IMG/VR virus record: IMGVR_UViG_2648501437_000023
Length of the DNA: 7,974 nt
Origin: a virus
Taxonomy: Duplodnaviria > Heunggongvirae > Uroviricota > Caudoviricetes
Direction: 5' to 3' (one strand)
Position numbers and translations under genes: made by a program. Positions 2,324 to 7,974 of this stretch are shown here, one piece after another. The first letter of the stretch is position 1, and every line of letters starts with the position of its first letter. The notes under the pieces are model-generated. The model was not told where the DNA came from, made no database searches, and worked only from the letters and a program-made list of their open reading frames with translations.

Positions 2324-2364
2324 GAATTTTTCGGATACGGGTTCAACTCCCGCCAGCTCCACCA
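2324..2364 (+). other. ssrA: 3'-terminal fragment of tmRNA (ssrA): T-arm, acceptor 3' strand and CCA; att-site remnant, not an intact tmRNA gene
   Basis: tcggatacgggttcaactcccgccagctccacca matches the enterobacterial tmRNA 3' end as I recall it (…TCGGACGCGGGTTCAACTCCCGCCAGCTCCACCA) with two substitutions. The ~320 nt upstream (2000-2320) contains no tmRNA 5' acceptor strand or tag-peptide reading frame, so only the 3' end is present. Confidence 0.7.
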
Positions 2365-2432: not shown

Positions 2433-2489
2433 ACGTCTATTGTCGTCCAGTGAGAATTGCTGAGAACTACGAGTTATGGCACCCTGAAT

Positions 2490-2526
2490 GGGACCCACTA
2501 AGAAGGGTCCAAAAACCGAGGGTCCC
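2490..2526. promoter_or_regulatory. GGGACCC … GGGTCC … GGGTCCC repeat set overlapping the integrase ribosome-binding site
   Basis: GGGACCC at 2490-2496 is the exact reverse complement of GGGTCCC at 2520-2526; a direct GGGTCC copy sits at 2505-2510, each followed by an A-run. The distal copy overlaps the GAGGG Shine-Dalgarno (2518-2522) of the integrase start at 2530. Confidence 0.25.
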
Positions 2527-2529
2527 AAA

Positions 2530-3759
2530 ATGGCAAAAATCGCTAAGAAGCTCACTGACACTGAAATCAAAAGCACCAAGCCAGCCGATAAAGAAATCAA
2601 CTTGTTTGACGGTGATGGTCTGATTCTACGAATCGCTCCTTTGGCGAAAGGAGGCAAGAAAAATTGGTATTTCAGGTATGCAGTACCAGTGAGCAAGAAA
2701 AGAACCAAAATGAGCCTTGGGACATATCCTCACCTTACCCTTGCAAGAGCCAGAGCCTTACGTGATGAATATCTCTCCTTTCTGGCAAATGGTGTTGATC
2801 CCCAAATCCATAACAACGATAAGGCGAAGGCATTAAAGAGTGCTACTGAGCACACTCTCCAAGCCGTAGCGCGGAAATGGTTAGATGAGAAGGTAAAGAC
2901 ATCAGGTATCTCACAAGACCATGCAGCAGACATCTGGCGCAGCTTAGAGAGAAATGTCTTTCCCGGTCTGGGTAATGTCCCTATCAATGAGATCCGACCT
3001 AAGCTCTTAAAACAACACCTTGATCCTATTGAGCAACGAGGCGTATTGGAAACTCTACGCCGTATCATTTCACGTCTGAATGAAATCTTCCGGTGGGCAG
3101 CTACTGAAGAACTTATTGAGTTCAACCCGGCTGACAACCTTGGTCAAAGATTCAGTAAACCAAAAAAGCAAAATATGCCTGCCCTTCCCCCAAGCGAATT
3201 GCCAAGGTTTATGGAATCTTTGACGAATGCGTCAATCCGGTTGGAAACACGTATGCTAATTGAATGGCAATTGTTGACATGGGTTCGTCCGGGTGAAGCC
3301 GTTCGCGCAAGGTGGTCTGATATTGATACAACCAACAGCATTTGGAACATTCCTGCTGATTTCATGAAAATGAAAAAGCTTCACAAAGTTCCTTTGAGTA
3401 AAGAAGCTTTGCGCATCCTTGAATTAATGAAATCAATAAGTGGGCATAGAGAATGGGTTTTCCCCAGCATAAAAGCGCCTCTTAATCATATGCATGAACA
3501 AACAGCCAACGCAGCTATCATCCGAATGGGGTTCGGAGGCGAGCTTGTAGCTCACGGTATGCGTTCTATTGCACGAACAGCGGCAGAGGAGTCTGGTAAA
3601 TTCAGAGCTGAAGTTCTTGAGGCAGCGCTTGCCCACTCGAAAAAAGATGAAATTATCGCAGCATACAATCGTGCAGAATATCTGATAGAGCGACAGAGTT
3701 TGATGCAATGGTGGAGTGATTACGTTCAAGCTCAAAGATCAAATGCTCTGGTAGCCTAA
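2530..3759 (+). CDS. int: P4-type (IntA/CP4-57-like) tyrosine integrase
   Basis: N-terminus MAKIAKKLTDTEIKSTKPADKEINLFDGDGLILRI matches the P4-family arm-binding domain. Catalytic motifs VRPGEAVRARWSDID, AHGMRSIART, LAHS, AYNRAEY. GAGGG Shine-Dalgarno 7 nt upstream of ATG 2530; the track's 2488 start adds 14 residues with no RBS, so 2530 is preferred. Lies about 165 bp downstream of the ssrA 3' fragment, the typical ssrA-int arrangement. Confidence 0.9.
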   Translation: MAKIAKKLTDTEIKSTKPADKEINLFDGDGLILRIAPLAKGGKKNWYFRYAVPVSKKRTKMSLGTYPHLTLARARALRDEYLSFLANGVDPQIHNNDKAKALKSATEHTLQAVARKWLDEKVKTSGISQDHAADIWRSLERNVFPGLGNVPINEIRPKLLKQHLDPIEQRGVLETLRRIISRLNEIFRWAATEELIEFNPADNLGQRFSKPKKQNMPALPPSELPRFMESLTNASIRLETRMLIEWQLLTWVRPGEAVRARWSDIDTTNSIWNIPADFMKMKKLHKVPLSKEALRILELMKSISGHREWVFPSIKAPLNHMHEQTANAAIIRMGFGGELVAHGMRSIARTAAEESGKFRAEVLEAALAHSKKDEIIAAYNRAEYLIERQSLMQWWSDYVQAQRSNALVA

Positions 3760-3797: not shown

Positions 3798-4214
3798 ATG
3801 GAAACCCTATTCAAAGTTTTTGAAAAATTTAGTTCCAGACCACTTTTTTTTATTTTTTTCGGACTCTCACTTTGTGAATTTTTTCAGAAACAATCTGTTC
3901 TGATGAATCCATCAGCAGATAACATCGCGAAATTATTCGCAGCCATGATATTAGTTGTTTTTTTTACTTGGGGATTTGAATGGCTAATCTTCAAGTTCAA
4001 TGTAAACCTTGAACCTCATGATCAAGGCGATATTGGACCAACAATTGGAACGGCTACTTTAGCTGTATACTTAGTTTATGCCTTTCACTTTCTCAGTGAA
4101 AATCCTGAAGCATTAAATTTAAAGTTATTAACTAACTCTGGCTTTATATACAGCACAACTCTATTATTATTCTCATTAGAATGCATGAAGCTTAGAAGAC
4201 TTAAACAAAAATAA
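3798..4214 (+). CDS. small integral membrane protein (138 aa, 3-4 predicted TM helices), function unknown
   Basis: Hydrophobic stretches PLFFIFFGLSLCEFF, IAKLFAAMILVVFFTWGF, IGTATLAVYLVYAFHFL, GFIYSTTLLLFSL. AT-rich like the downstream operon. Weak RBS, so start and expression are uncertain. Confidence 0.45.
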   Translation: METLFKVFEKFSSRPLFFIFFGLSLCEFFQKQSVLMNPSADNIAKLFAAMILVVFFTWGFEWLIFKFNVNLEPHDQGDIGPTIGTATLAVYLVYAFHFLSENPEALNLKLLTNSGFIYSTTLLLFSLECMKLRRLKQK

Positions 4215-4285
4215 ACAACATCATTGTGATGATAAATATAAAATAGGCATGGCGAAAAAAAATCACCACGCCTAAAATATAATAA

Positions 4286-6052
4286 TTATGGTAGCATCAT
4301 TGATACATAATCCACACCAATCCTTGAGCTATACTGAGACGCTATAGCCTGATATCTTTCTGCATAACCAGTTCTCAGTTGAGATTTAAGTTTGAGTCGG
4401 ACAGGAACATTTTGCACGTTGCCATCCATATTACTTAAAAACACGGCAGAAATAATATTTTTTTCTTCGCCATCAACTGTTGTTCCATGATTCAACACCA
4501 CCATATAATCAACAACAGGAAGCGTTTTATCCCCTTCGAAAATAGAGAGATATTTTCTTTGATTTTTATGCATTACATATATATATTTCGAATGTTCAGC
4601 AAATGGCAATGCTTTACTCTGACTGGCGTTAAAAAGCTCCAGAACTTTAATGAGCCTGTGCGGACTTAATCTTACATGGTGAGGGTCGTTACCCTGAGTA
4701 GGAACCAAATCACATGCCGCAGATACACATAAATACCATTTGTTCGACTCTGTATCAAAGAAAATAGTGCCAGTAGAAATATGACCATCTTCAAAATTCT
4801 TTGAAGACAAATTCATATTTAAAGCATGATACATTTCGTGATAAGTATCATTATTTGATGGCAGATCCATTTTTGAAGAGCAATATTGGAGCAATGCAGC
4901 AACTCCGCTGTTAGCGTATTCATTTGAATAGCTATCAAAAACACTTTTGATAAATTCATCCAGCGTATTATTATTTTTAAGTCTTTGATAAAGCTCTTCT
5001 GATAAATTACCAAATACAAAGTCAATATTTCTACATCTAATATCAGGCGAGTCTGATTTTAATATCTCATTTAACCACGCAGCTTGACCGTAATGATCGT
5101 TAGCCAAATGATTTACAAAAGATAAAGCCTCAGCTTCGATTGCATTCTGAATTTCAGATTTTATTAACTGATAATAAGATGGTTTCCATTCAATGAGAGA
5201 ATCATTGAGAGTTTGCCAAATCCTATCTCCATCGTTTTCATGATCATCTTGAACCTTATGAAATAGGGAGACAAAGATATTACCACATTGAATCCATTTT
5301 ACTCCGCTTTCATCACCCCGAATGACATTGCCAGATGTGTTGCTAGAAATAATTGCATTTCTAGACACAGCATATTCTGCAATCATTTTTGCAATGAAGT
5401 TTTTATCCTTTTGTTCCTCCAACACAGCATCATCATGTATTAATCTTTTAATTCTTCTACAAGGCTTACTGTCTTTAATATAGGCTATTGTTTCATCTCT
5501 TGTGAGAGCTTTATTACCATTATCATTTAAGTTCGGTAATACAACGTCTTCCCAATAACTTTGGACATCTTCATTATCGTAGTCAATGATCAAGCTGTTG
5601 ATATCCAGAGCACCTTTGAGAGTCGATGATATCTGCATCCAAACCGTTTCTAAATTCTCTCTAGTATATATTACAATCATATTTAAATGATCGGAGTCTT
5701 TCAAATCTTGTAATAGTTTAAGTGTTTTATCAGGTGCATTATTATCAAGATGATAATCTACAATAATAAGATCTGATTTTCTAATCCGATCCACATCGAA
5801 ATTAACAGAACCATTGTCAACATCACAAATCATATTTTTAGATTGAAAAAAGCTCTCAAGAGTAGCGGCTCGTTTAGATGAGTCAATTTTGTTGTAGTCT
5901 AAATCAACTTCGTTATTCAACGCCCTGATTGATTCAGAATACGTCAGAAAATCGTCATCAATCATGACAACGGAACGAATTGCATTTTCGCAGAAAGTTT
6001 TCTGGACAAGAGAATTATAATTTGCCACTGTCATATTAGAACTCCACTCCAT
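4286..6052 (-). CDS. response-regulator-like protein: N-terminal receiver (REC) domain plus ~450-aa C-terminal domain of unknown function (candidate effector)
   Basis: 588-aa ORF. REC hallmarks: VVMIDDD (acidic pair, D32-D34), DLIIVDYHLDNNAPDKTLKLL (phospho-acceptor Asp D99; codon checked at 5756-5758), NMIVIYT (conserved Thr), STLK (Lys). Rest of the protein shows no HTH or other recognisable output motif. Alternative start at 6034 (MTVANY…) has a GGAG Shine-Dalgarno 7 nt upstream and sits 1 nt after the kinase stop. Confidence 0.8.
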   Translation of the reverse strand: MEWSSNMTVANYNSLVQKTFCENAIRSVVMIDDDFLTYSESIRALNNEVDLDYNKIDSSKRAATLESFFQSKNMICDVDNGSVNFDVDRIRKSDLIIVDYHLDNNAPDKTLKLLQDLKDSDHLNMIVIYTRENLETVWMQISSTLKGALDINSLIIDYDNEDVQSYWEDVVLPNLNDNGNKALTRDETIAYIKDSKPCRRIKRLIHDDAVLEEQKDKNFIAKMIAEYAVSRNAIISSNTSGNVIRGDESGVKWIQCGNIFVSLFHKVQDDHENDGDRIWQTLNDSLIEWKPSYYQLIKSEIQNAIEAEALSFVNHLANDHYGQAAWLNEILKSDSPDIRCRNIDFVFGNLSEELYQRLKNNNTLDEFIKSVFDSYSNEYANSGVAALLQYCSSKMDLPSNNDTYHEMYHALNMNLSSKNFEDGHISTGTIFFDTESNKWYLCVSAACDLVPTQGNDPHHVRLSPHRLIKVLELFNASQSKALPFAEHSKYIYVMHKNQRKYLSIFEGDKTLPVVDYMVVLNHGTTVDGEEKNIISAVFLSNMDGNVQNVPVRLKLKSQLRTGYAERYQAIASQYSSRIGVDYVSMMLP

Positions 6053-7754
6053 TGAACTGGATCACAAAATTAGCGCCATCTTTTATTAAATAGTTATCGC
6101 CTTCATCAGGTTCTGAATACCATATTTTATGATGTGCAACAGCAAGGTTTTCTCGACATAGATACAGACCTACCCCATGTCCATTTGCTCTTTTGCTATA
6201 AAATAGTTCAAATAGTCGCGGGATATCATCGGTATCAATTGCCGGACCAGAATTTGCTATGATAACCAAAGAATTCACAAAACCAATCTTTATGAGCCTA
6301 TTATTTGACAGACTGACCCAATACATTGCATTGTTGATAATATTAGTAAAAACAGGATAGATCCTTGATGGTATATCTGTTATTGCGATTTGCTTAAACT
6401 CTTCACTAAATTCAATAGTTATTCGTTGCCGTTCGAAACGCTCCCCAAAGAACTTCAGGACATAATCCATGATATTTTTTCCAGTTATTCTCTGCCTGGA
6501 TTGATAACCTGATATTTTCAAAGGTGATAAGAAACGTATTTGTTGAGTAAGCGATCTGTGAGCATTTAACGCCAATGAAAAACCAGGGTGTTCTTTTACA
6601 GAAGTAGGAAGAGAGTTTAGTCCTCTGGTTACCATAGAATCCATTTCTTCAAGTTCATGAGATATTATCTCAACACTAATACCTAACTGTGCAAGCGCGT
6701 TTAAACTTTTAGCTTTTTCTTCAAAATATGAGCGTTCTTCTTCAGATAATGAGAATGCTGAATCTAAGTTTATACCTTCAAATAATCTATCGAGACCTTT
6801 TATTATTGATTGATATTTGAAAGTTAGGGTATCAACTGACTCAACATATAAACTATCGAGCAAATTAAACACATTTTCAATTTGTGAATCATTATCTATT
6901 GAATCAACAACTGATATAGTTTTAGCATAATAATCACTTCGATCATCCTTTATTTCATCGGCCCATTTTTTTAAAAGAGAATGTATCTTCTCCTCTATCG
7001 TGTTATTAAACTTAGTTAGTTTAGAATTAATAATACCTTGATTTTTTTCAAGGTGATTTTTCGCTGACAATGAAGGCTCAAGTTTATTTAATTCAGAATC
7101 AAGTTTATTAATTGCTAACTTCATTTGTAGAATATACGCAGAGAACTCATTAAATTTATCTCTGTAGTCTCTATATTTCTCTTCATACATTCCAAGTTTT
7201 GGAGGTTTGATAGGCGTTTTAATTTCACTGCGCAACGCATCTAAGTTTGTAAGATCACTGTCTATAATTTTAAGATAGTTTAAATCTAACGAACCATCAG
7301 TTTTATCAAGCTTAGTTTTCAGCCTTTTAACAGCCTCCAAGGAAGCATCAAGAACTGGTGTCTGATTCTTCAAAGCTTCTGAAAAACTTTTTTGTGTTGA
7401 TTTTCGAGCTTGTTGTTGAGCAGATTTTCTTAACTCTTTTTCACGCTTAACTTGTTCTAAAAGCTCTTTACGGTCATCAGAACGTGAACCAAAAAATCTA
7501 TCAGCAAGTTCAGTTAACAAATTAGATATAATAGTTTTCAGTTCTCTTGCAGCCTGGTTTCTTATGAATCCCTCTCTCCCCGACTTATCTTTCAGCTCTT
7601 TATTACTGGATTGAGTAATTCCAATATAACCAAAAATCCTTCTATTAGACCAATAATATCGCCCTGCATTCCATGAACGTCTTTCTTCTATCTGGAAGAA
7701 ATCATTATCTACTCGACCATAAGGTAATACTCTCAAGCTATCCCTAAAAATCAT
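6036..7754 (-). CDS. soluble histidine-kinase-like protein: ~350-aa coiled-coil-rich N-terminal region, HisKA-like H-box, HATPase_c domain
   Basis: 572-aa ORF. H-box GISVEIISHELEEM (His366; codon checked at 6657-6659). N-box PVFTNIINNAMYW, G1 IANSGPAID, F-box LFELFYSKR, G2 GHGVGL (codons checked at 6165-6182). No hydrophobic TM segments; N-terminal half is K/E/L-rich. Stop overlaps the start of the downstream REC gene. Confidence 0.8.
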   Translation of the reverse strand: MIFRDSLRVLPYGRVDNDFFQIEERRSWNAGRYYWSNRRIFGYIGITQSSNKELKDKSGREGFIRNQAARELKTIISNLLTELADRFFGSRSDDRKELLEQVKREKELRKSAQQQARKSTQKSFSEALKNQTPVLDASLEAVKRLKTKLDKTDGSLDLNYLKIIDSDLTNLDALRSEIKTPIKPPKLGMYEEKYRDYRDKFNEFSAYILQMKLAINKLDSELNKLEPSLSAKNHLEKNQGIINSKLTKFNNTIEEKIHSLLKKWADEIKDDRSDYYAKTISVVDSIDNDSQIENVFNLLDSLYVESVDTLTFKYQSIIKGLDRLFEGINLDSAFSLSEEERSYFEEKAKSLNALAQLGISVEIISHELEEMDSMVTRGLNSLPTSVKEHPGFSLALNAHRSLTQQIRFLSPLKISGYQSRQRITGKNIMDYVLKFFGERFERQRITIEFSEEFKQIAITDIPSRIYPVFTNIINNAMYWVSLSNNRLIKIGFVNSLVIIANSGPAIDTDDIPRLFELFYSKRANGHGVGLYLCRENLAVAHHKIWYSEPDEGDNYLIKDGANFVIQFNGVEF

Positions 7755-7974
7755 TAGTCCTGCATACTTTTTGGCCTTAAGATCAAAGTGGGAATGTTCA
7801 CGTTCAGTATGTGATGTATTTTGTGAAAGGAATTCAAACGTTCCTATCTGAAGCTCAAATGGGCCGACCCCTGCGTGATCCTACCCACGTAATATGGACA
7901 CAGGCCTAAGCGAGGTTCTTGTTTTCAAATTGTTCCGGACTGAGGCCGCCACACCAACTGTGCCGCCGCCACCG

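Follow-up and report, generated by a model that had tools for sequence, protein, structure and literature searches.

The stretch of DNA analyzed here (the window; 7,974 nucleotides, IMG/VR virus record IMGVR_UViG_2648501437_000023) is a piece of Escherichia coli chromosome at the ssrA (transfer-messenger RNA, tmRNA) insertion site, where a prophage and an island lie in tandem. The island carries two co-directional minus-strand genes, at 6036-7754 and 4286-6052, which a first-pass annotation of the sequence had described as a two-gene operon encoding a soluble histidine kinase and a receiver-domain protein, and as a candidate novel defense or signaling system. Both genes were found, and the AT-rich cargo beside a P4-type integrase that the annotation had noted was recovered: the GC content is 29-37% across the two genes as against 40-54% in the flanks, and the integrase, at 2488-3759, is recognized by Pfam and by NF007246. 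The reported overlap of the two genes holds, at 17 bases, if the receiver gene starts at the alternative ATG at 6052 (588 aa), but with the start annotated by NCBI at 6034 (582 aa, 4286-6034) it is replaced by a 1-base gap.

The kinase open reading frame (ORF) was listed as 572 aa, with an internal ATG at 7754 as its annotated start. Upstream of this ATG the frame stays open for 40 codons, up to position 7875, and an IS3 element starts at 7876. The 612 codons below the IS3 junction, at 6036-7875 on the minus strand, align gap-free to residues 380-991 of a protein of 991 aa encoded in a related ssrA island (locus L002), with 88% identity, and nucleotide homology to that island ends exactly at the IS3 edge. 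The full-length L002 protein has an N-terminal HATPase_c_3 domain (MORC-like GHKL) at residues 28-139 with intact ATP-binding motifs. Pfam detected no such domain in the window kinase; it is not obligatory for membership of the Pfam family. Because the fragment aligns without a gap right up to IS3, the kinase anatomy first reported is that of a 5'-truncated gene. The complete soluble kinase with a coiled-coil N-terminus of ~350 aa does not stand: judged from the alignment, this N-terminus is the middle of a larger protein from which the first 379 residues (38%) are gone. No sigma-70-like promoter was found between IS3 and the ATG at 7754. Two unrelated loci (L007 5204-8188 and L014 4554-6366) have two ORFs in place of a single GHKL/kinase gene, so that decay of the long kinase gene, or assembly error, is not unique to E. 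coli.

The C-terminal part of the kinase is retained. It comprises a HEF_HK (DHp-like) phosphoacceptor domain at residues 356-414 (6513-6689, minus strand; Pfam PF19191, E 1e-5), whose 26.3 bits are marginal relative to the cut-off of 24.1 bits, and a HATPase_c catalytic (CA) domain at residues 462-553 (6096-6371, minus strand; Pfam PF02518, E 1.9e-11). The H-box and the N/G1/F/G2 boxes were correctly read in the first-pass annotation: the H-box His is H366 (encoded at 6657-6659), which corresponds to H785 of the 991-aa protein, and is followed by the acidic E367, and N, G1/F and G2-type motifs are located at residues 471, 509 and 525. The DHp and CA parts of an orthologue match Thermotoga ThkA (3a0r) with an E-value of 3.3e-5, and the kinase core resembles solved sensor kinases. 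Compared with an orthologue of 83% nucleotide identity, the ratio of nonsynonymous to synonymous substitution rates (dN/dS) came to 0.05 in the kinase fragment and 0.08 in the receiver gene. Both ORFs are therefore true coding sequence, and the low ratios indicate long-term purifying selection on the two genes.

The form in which this gene pair is conserved was seen in ten related loci. These belong to Salmonella, Acinetobacter, further enterobacterial islands and metagenomes, and their receiver proteins share 23-87% identity with that of the window. The pair adjoins in all ten, and co-occurrence of the two genes in other genomes is very strong, but the unit is not the two-gene operon that had been proposed. 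In 10 of the 10 loci it is a trio that starts with a C5 DNA methylase (PF00145). The second gene encodes a soluble GHKL/kinase protein of ~980-1002 aa with an N-terminal HATPase_c_3 domain, a long helical middle and C-terminal HEF_HK and HATPase_c domains, and the third encodes a receiver protein of ~580-620 aa with an N-terminal Response_reg_2 domain, a helical middle and a beta-rich C-terminal domain. The three genes usually overlap or abut, and no further neighbor is conserved in the ten loci. The L002 trio occupies the same smpB-ssrA-integrase site as the window. The GHKL domains of intact orthologues match the PADLOC REase_II model PDLC03419 (E 1.6e-9 and 5e-13), whereas the truncated window copy does not.

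Intact trios were observed in several contexts. One lies beside a P4-like satellite with SIR2-HerA (L009 9750-18759), and another in a Salmonella integrative and conjugative element (ICE) with SIR2_2 and a DEAD/ResIII helicase (L003/L004 12732-21752). In the L007 island, a relaxase and a NikA-like gene are suggestive of a mobilizable element. E. coli O55:H7 DEC5E (NZ_CP038383.1; L015 5697-12889) has a divergent intact trio (5697-11772) in an ICE-like context (ArdC), consisting of a C5 methylase, a 989-aa GHKL/kinase and a 607-aa receiver protein 23% identical to that of the window. The trio is followed by the gene of an HNH protein, for which the annotation is 'phosphorothioated DNA-binding restriction endonuclease'. 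Weak matches to the L015 GHKL gene, at ~79% identity, occur in at least 205 complete E. coli genomes, L015 being the sole one inspected.

No C5 methylase gene adjoins the pair in the window. The final stretch of the window, 7876-7974, is the terminal ~100 bases of the IS3 element, with the inverted repeat ...TGTGTCCATATTACGTGGGTAGGATCA on the minus strand; the stretch is multicopy in 3598 E. coli genomes. The IS3 transposase is annotated directly adjacent to the pair, in the same orientation as both genes, in strains 2014C-3307 (L001) and PV16-126 (L010). In genomes carrying the truncated locus, the far side of IS3 is a truncated chromosomal pseudogene, and this succession shows that the deletion took the methylase, the 5' part of the kinase gene and the island's far end. 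In complete E. coli genomes the lost segment, with the methylase and the N-terminal part of the kinase, has no close copy. The truncated locus itself is present at ≥99.7% identity in ~560 of 5426 such genomes, including E. coli W, O103, O111 and O104:H21, and the IS3 junction is identical in 484 of them, which points to a single ancestral event. Apparent divergent E. coli copies at '80-95% identity' proved to be spurious 100-base matches and were discarded.

Taken together, these data make it probable that a three-gene phosphorelay module linked to restriction-modification (R-M) in an ssrA-site island has decayed to leave this locus. An IS3-associated deletion would have taken the methylase gene, the first 379 kinase codons with the entire GHKL domain, the region of the native promoter and the remaining part of the island. 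It would have left the receiver protein and a kinase core that could be translated solely from the internal ATG. The original proposal, an intact and self-contained operon of a soluble kinase and a receiver-effector acting as a new anti-phage phosphorelay, can draw on the presence of kinase and receiver motifs, on the tight linkage of the genes, on their island location beside an integrase and on the defense-rich neighborhoods of related loci (SIR2-HerA, SIR2_2). With the kinase cut by IS3 at codon 380 of 991, a methylase included in the conserved unit of three genes, no promoter-like site upstream of the ATG and the family already present in Pfam and the literature, we regard this proposal as highly improbable.

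The receiver protein, for which there are 111 full-length homologues, has its receiver core at residues 19-175 (5510-5980, minus strand; Response_reg_2, Pfam PF19192). The window protein scores 109.1 bits (cut-off 27 bits; E 3.6e-31), and all 41 aligned homologues match the same family. The conserved Asp/Asp/Thr/Lys set noted initially is present: D26/D27, D93, T124 and K260 are invariant in the 41 homologues, D93 (encoded at 5756-5758) being the phospho-acceptor that was first numbered D99. An AlphaFold model built with the 41-sequence alignment had a predicted local distance difference test score (pLDDT) of 84.7 and a predicted template modeling score (pTM) of 0.76. In the model, residues 1-260 form a receiver fold with a helical insert at 128-226, apparently closed at K260, residues 268-410 are helical and residues 411-582 are beta-rich. 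A Foldseek search with the model gave weak matches to CheY-like and flavodoxin folds. Three PHROGs families (phrog_7659, 30547 and 8137) match the receiver and kinase proteins end to end, and one of them, a 572-position profile, corresponds to the truncated kinase. These families are of unknown function; they were apparently built from the same E. coli region, which was presumably catalogued as phage through the adjoining prophage.

The receiver protein ends in a conserved beta-rich domain, residues 390-582 (4289-4867, minus strand). Its invariant or near-invariant residues are H403, N406, G422, T423, C436, C441, D442, P445, R460, Q552, R554, Y557, R571, G573 and D575. A profile of the domain matched 649 representative proteins among 1.84 billion, 474 of them at E ≤ 1e-10, the latter figure being a lower bound on the family in protein clusters at 50% identity. 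The best 150 of the 649 matches all have the same architecture or are fragments of it, and every full-length one of these that was scanned has Response_reg_2. Residues ~180-582 matched nothing in Pfam, NCBIfam, PADLOC or PDB sequences. Nuclease and DNA-binding families (PD-(D/E)xK, HNH, PLD and winged helix-turn-helix) were sought in the receiver protein and rejected, none being found in Pfam (E ≤ 10, 41 members), NCBIfam or PDB sequences, or by Foldseek, which was run on the whole model. The statement that the protein has no recognizable DNA-binding output is thus upheld by Pfam, NCBIfam and Foldseek.

A Foldseek search with the C-terminal domain gave no significant match; MazF-mt3 was at rank 6 with an E-value of 0.38. 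Such a toxin-like barrel may be present in the model and is a lead only. It could be taken to mean that the domain is a MazF/CcdB-type toxin and that the intact trio is a methylation-gated abortive-infection or addiction module, as opposed to DNA-cutting restriction. Comparison by hhalign with an approximate five-sequence MazF alignment gave a probability of 0.1%. No sequence or profile similarity to MazF, Kid or CcdB was found, and the domain is about twice the size of MazF and has other conserved residues. We consider a toxin of this type unlikely.

The claim of novelty has to be given up, since both domains are already Pfam families: HEF_HK (PF19191) and Response_reg_2 (PF19192) were defined from this same gene pair (Bellieny-Rabelo, Pretorius & Moleleki 2021, Genome Biol Evol, PMC8011034). 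That study reported 91.6% linkage of the pair over 644 regions, HATPase_c_3+HEF_HK+HATPase_c as the dominant kinase architecture (174/222), Response_reg_2 proteins without other known domain, and enrichment of the pair beside R-M genes, especially C5 methylases, and it proposed a cytoplasmic two-component system regulating R-M. NCBI names the E. coli receiver protein 'response regulator receiver domain'. The window conforms to this family. Its matches to HEF_HK as well as to Response_reg_2 lie above the Pfam cut-offs, its genes are adjacent and co-directional as in the ten other loci, and its kinase is soluble with a C-terminal HATPase_c domain; its orthologues have the N-terminal HATPase_c_3 domain and the upstream C5 methylase that PMC8011034 reports. 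The window differs in having neither of these, through the IS3-associated deletion. It would fit 'group 2' of PMC8011034 (HEF_HK+HATPase_c), but here this arrangement is a truncation and not a natural variant, which shows that an architecture of HEF_HK and HATPase_c only can arise by truncation. The analysis in PMC8011034 did not take in the C-terminal ~400 residues of the receiver protein.

A more distant relative is Ambrosia, an anti-phage system of Pseudomonas that consists of an XRE regulator, the N6 methylase AbrA, the GHKL/kinase AbrB, the receiver AbrC and the HNH nuclease AbrD (bioRxiv 10.1101/2025.09.30.679545). Its defense is abolished by AbrB N40A (the GHKL Asn) and by AbrC D60A (the receiver Asp), and reporter genes within the cluster are induced on infection; the authors favor transcriptional control (10.1101/2025.09.30.679545). 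Ambrosia is like the intact trio in that one cluster encodes a methylase, a HATPase_c_3/HATPase_c protein and a receiver protein. Over its N-terminal 399 residues AbrB shows homology to the intact GHKL/kinase protein, with E-values of 2e-10 for the GHKL domain and 1e-5 for an 'IxRDxxRVxPYG' segment that is retained in the window kinase fragment. In contrast, no similarity could be detected between AbrC, a canonical receiver of 209 aa, and the 582-aa window protein, the methylase is N6 and that of the trio C5, AbrB has 747 aa as against ~990, and neither the HNH nuclease nor the XRE regulator is conserved with the trio. Given that AbrB is homologous and AbrC is not, Ambrosia is a relative in logic and in one component, and not the same system.

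Transcriptional control of this kind would make the whole family a regulator, namely a cytoplasmic two-component system controlling the expression or activity of neighboring R-M genes, as proposed in PMC8011034 and as in the Ambrosia model with its infection-induced reporters. The helical middle region of the receiver protein (268-410) leaves room for such an output. The receiver protein nevertheless differs from those of classical two-component systems in lacking a recognized DNA-binding or enzymatic output domain. The methylase is the sole conserved neighbor in the ten loci, hence there is no nuclease gene to regulate, and the ~190-aa C-terminal domain, with its 13 invariant and additional near-invariant residues, several of them polar, resembles an active or binding site more than a generic output. 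A purely regulatory role for the family therefore appears improbable to us.

Detocs, with which the pair had initially been compared, consists of the sensor kinase DtcA, the Hpt buffer DtcB and the receiver-PNP effector DtcC. The shared element would be the logic of a phosphorelay that activates a receiver-fused, non-transcriptional effector. The first-pass annotation was right that the systems differ: no Hpt or PNP domain was found in the window or in the related loci, and methylase linkage and a MORC-like GHKL domain are features of the trio that Detocs is not known to have. Neither Detocs nor any other named phosphorelay system gave a significant PADLOC match, the presence of Detocs models in the PADLOC copy used being unconfirmed. 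A methylation-associated defense system (MADS) was also considered and set aside as unrelated, since its 'histidine kinase' is merely a hotspot boundary gene and its methylase is N6. Prokaryotic MORC/paraMORC GHKL ATPases have been linked to R-M (Iyer, Abhiman & Aravind 2008, as cited in PMC8011034), and the trio orthologue resembles them in its N-terminal HATPase_c_3 domain with intact ATP motifs, its methylase operon linkage and its REase_II match. The trio protein differs from them in that a complete histidine-kinase core is fused C-terminally, and its partner is a receiver protein and not a recognizable nuclease or helicase. Compared with Type II R-M, the window has no methylase and no endonuclease was identified.

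For the intact module we propose a methylation-dependent switch. The methylase would mark host DNA, and the GHKL/MORC-like part of the kinase would sense unmarked DNA or another sign of invasion. Autophosphorylation would then be switched on at the H-box His (H366 here), and the phosphate would be transferred to the receiver Asp, D93. This would release the C-terminal effector domain, which would act on nucleic acid or arrest the cell. The prerequisites for His-to-Asp transfer are present as far as the sequence alone can tell, in the form of H366, the ATP-binding boxes and D26/D27, D93, T124 and K260. Four residues after the His, HEF_HK lacks the Thr/Asn associated with phosphatase activity, and the H-box of the window reads H366-E-L-E-E; the absence of Thr or Asn at this position would fit a one-way switch. 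What remains of the phosphorelay envisaged at the outset is a kinase-like and receiver pair with a predicted non-transcriptional output, and not a novel, intact two-gene system.

In the window itself the pair is most likely inert and decaying, because both the sensor and the self-marking enzyme are missing. The joint loss of methylase and sensor fits an inactivating deletion. Such a loss would have been tolerated because modification and restriction disappeared together. A defense role is plausible by analogy for the intact family and unlikely for the decayed copy.

Several points weigh against this interpretation. A nuclease fold was found in neither protein, and a literature search found no experimental test of the HEF_HK/Response_reg_2 family. 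The Ambrosia analogy is partial, AbrC being unrelated in sequence and transcriptional control being favored there. The sensing of unmethylated DNA, the phosphotransfer and the effector activity are steps that we infer throughout. In most of the ~560 E. coli copies neither ORF is disrupted, and the NCBI annotation treats the genes as normal. Because IS3 has the same orientation, read-through from it could express the pair, and a residual or new function of the relic is conceivable.

These last observations could mean that the remnant was kept or co-opted in a large E. coli lineage as a working pair of kinase core and receiver-effector, expressed by IS3 read-through; neither the DHp and CA domains nor any part of the receiver protein has been lost. 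Identity of ≥99.7% marks an event too recent for conservation to indicate selection, and the sensor domain, the promoter and the partner methylase are lost. Moreover, decay of the copies can be seen. In L016 (NZ_CP118681.1) the receiver gene is annotated as a frameshifted pseudogene. By alignment, a single base is deleted at window position 4458, and this drops the last ~55 residues, including the invariant Q552/R554/Y557/R571/G573/D575. Six more genomes share the L016 locus length in a 60-row spread sample in which lengths were compared. L016 and L017 have an in-frame 3-base insertion near the 3' end of the receiver gene (near 4307), and genome H90 has an additional IS3-family insertion within the locus. 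Co-option accordingly seems to us quite unlikely. The same holds for a reading that joins several of these elements, in which the C-terminal domain would be a new phosphorylation-gated effector, possibly of the MazF/CcdB type, the intact trio would confer abortive infection gated by DNA methylation and would not restrict by cutting DNA, and the widespread relic's kinase core and toxin would be functional through IS3 read-through; we view this combination as distinctly doubtful.

The remaining features of the window are those of a prophage followed by an island. The window opens with one end of a lambdoid prophage (positions 1 to ~2364), which has integrase/excisionase-like ORFs at 232-441 and 396-1574; the closest full match of 1-2364 is E. 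coli O103:H2 PV16-126 (locus L010). The boundary between prophage and island is a copy of the ssrA 3'-end at 2329-2364 (plus strand), which represents the attachment-site core and was located by alignment to tmRNA. From 2329 the window aligns with L001 position 7131, within the tmRNA at 6804-7166, and the prophage matches end at 2364. Scans of the window for tRNA, tmRNA and Rfam families gave no match, the ssrA fragment being below callable length. The P4-type tyrosine integrase of the ssrA-inserted island, on the plus strand, matches Arm-DNA-bind_3, Phage_int_M and Phage_integrase and scores 440 bits with NF007246. It is an intact ORF of 423 aa in the window and is annotated as frameshifted in strain 2014C-3307 (L001 7332-8560), and this frameshift is further piecemeal decay of an immobilized island. 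Next to it, at 3798-4214 on the plus strand and convergent with the receiver gene, is a hypothetical 138-aa hydrophobic, membrane-like ORF, with no family assignment except a PHROG without known function. This ORF is found beside the trio in L009 and is absent in L002, and is optional island cargo outside the conserved trio. A terminator-like hairpin with a 12-pair stem followed by a T run lies just past the receiver-gene stop (4244-4274, minus strand).

The family is thus already known. The locus first taken for a new soluble kinase system is a relic, namely the IS3-cut pseudogene remnant left by a member of a Pfam-listed family. The intact family is still worth work. It is tied to C5 methylases, has no recognizable nuclease and has a C-terminal domain without a confident structural match, and phosphorelay-dependent phage protection has been reported for its distant relative Ambrosia. 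Intact copies, and not the relic, are the right experimental material.

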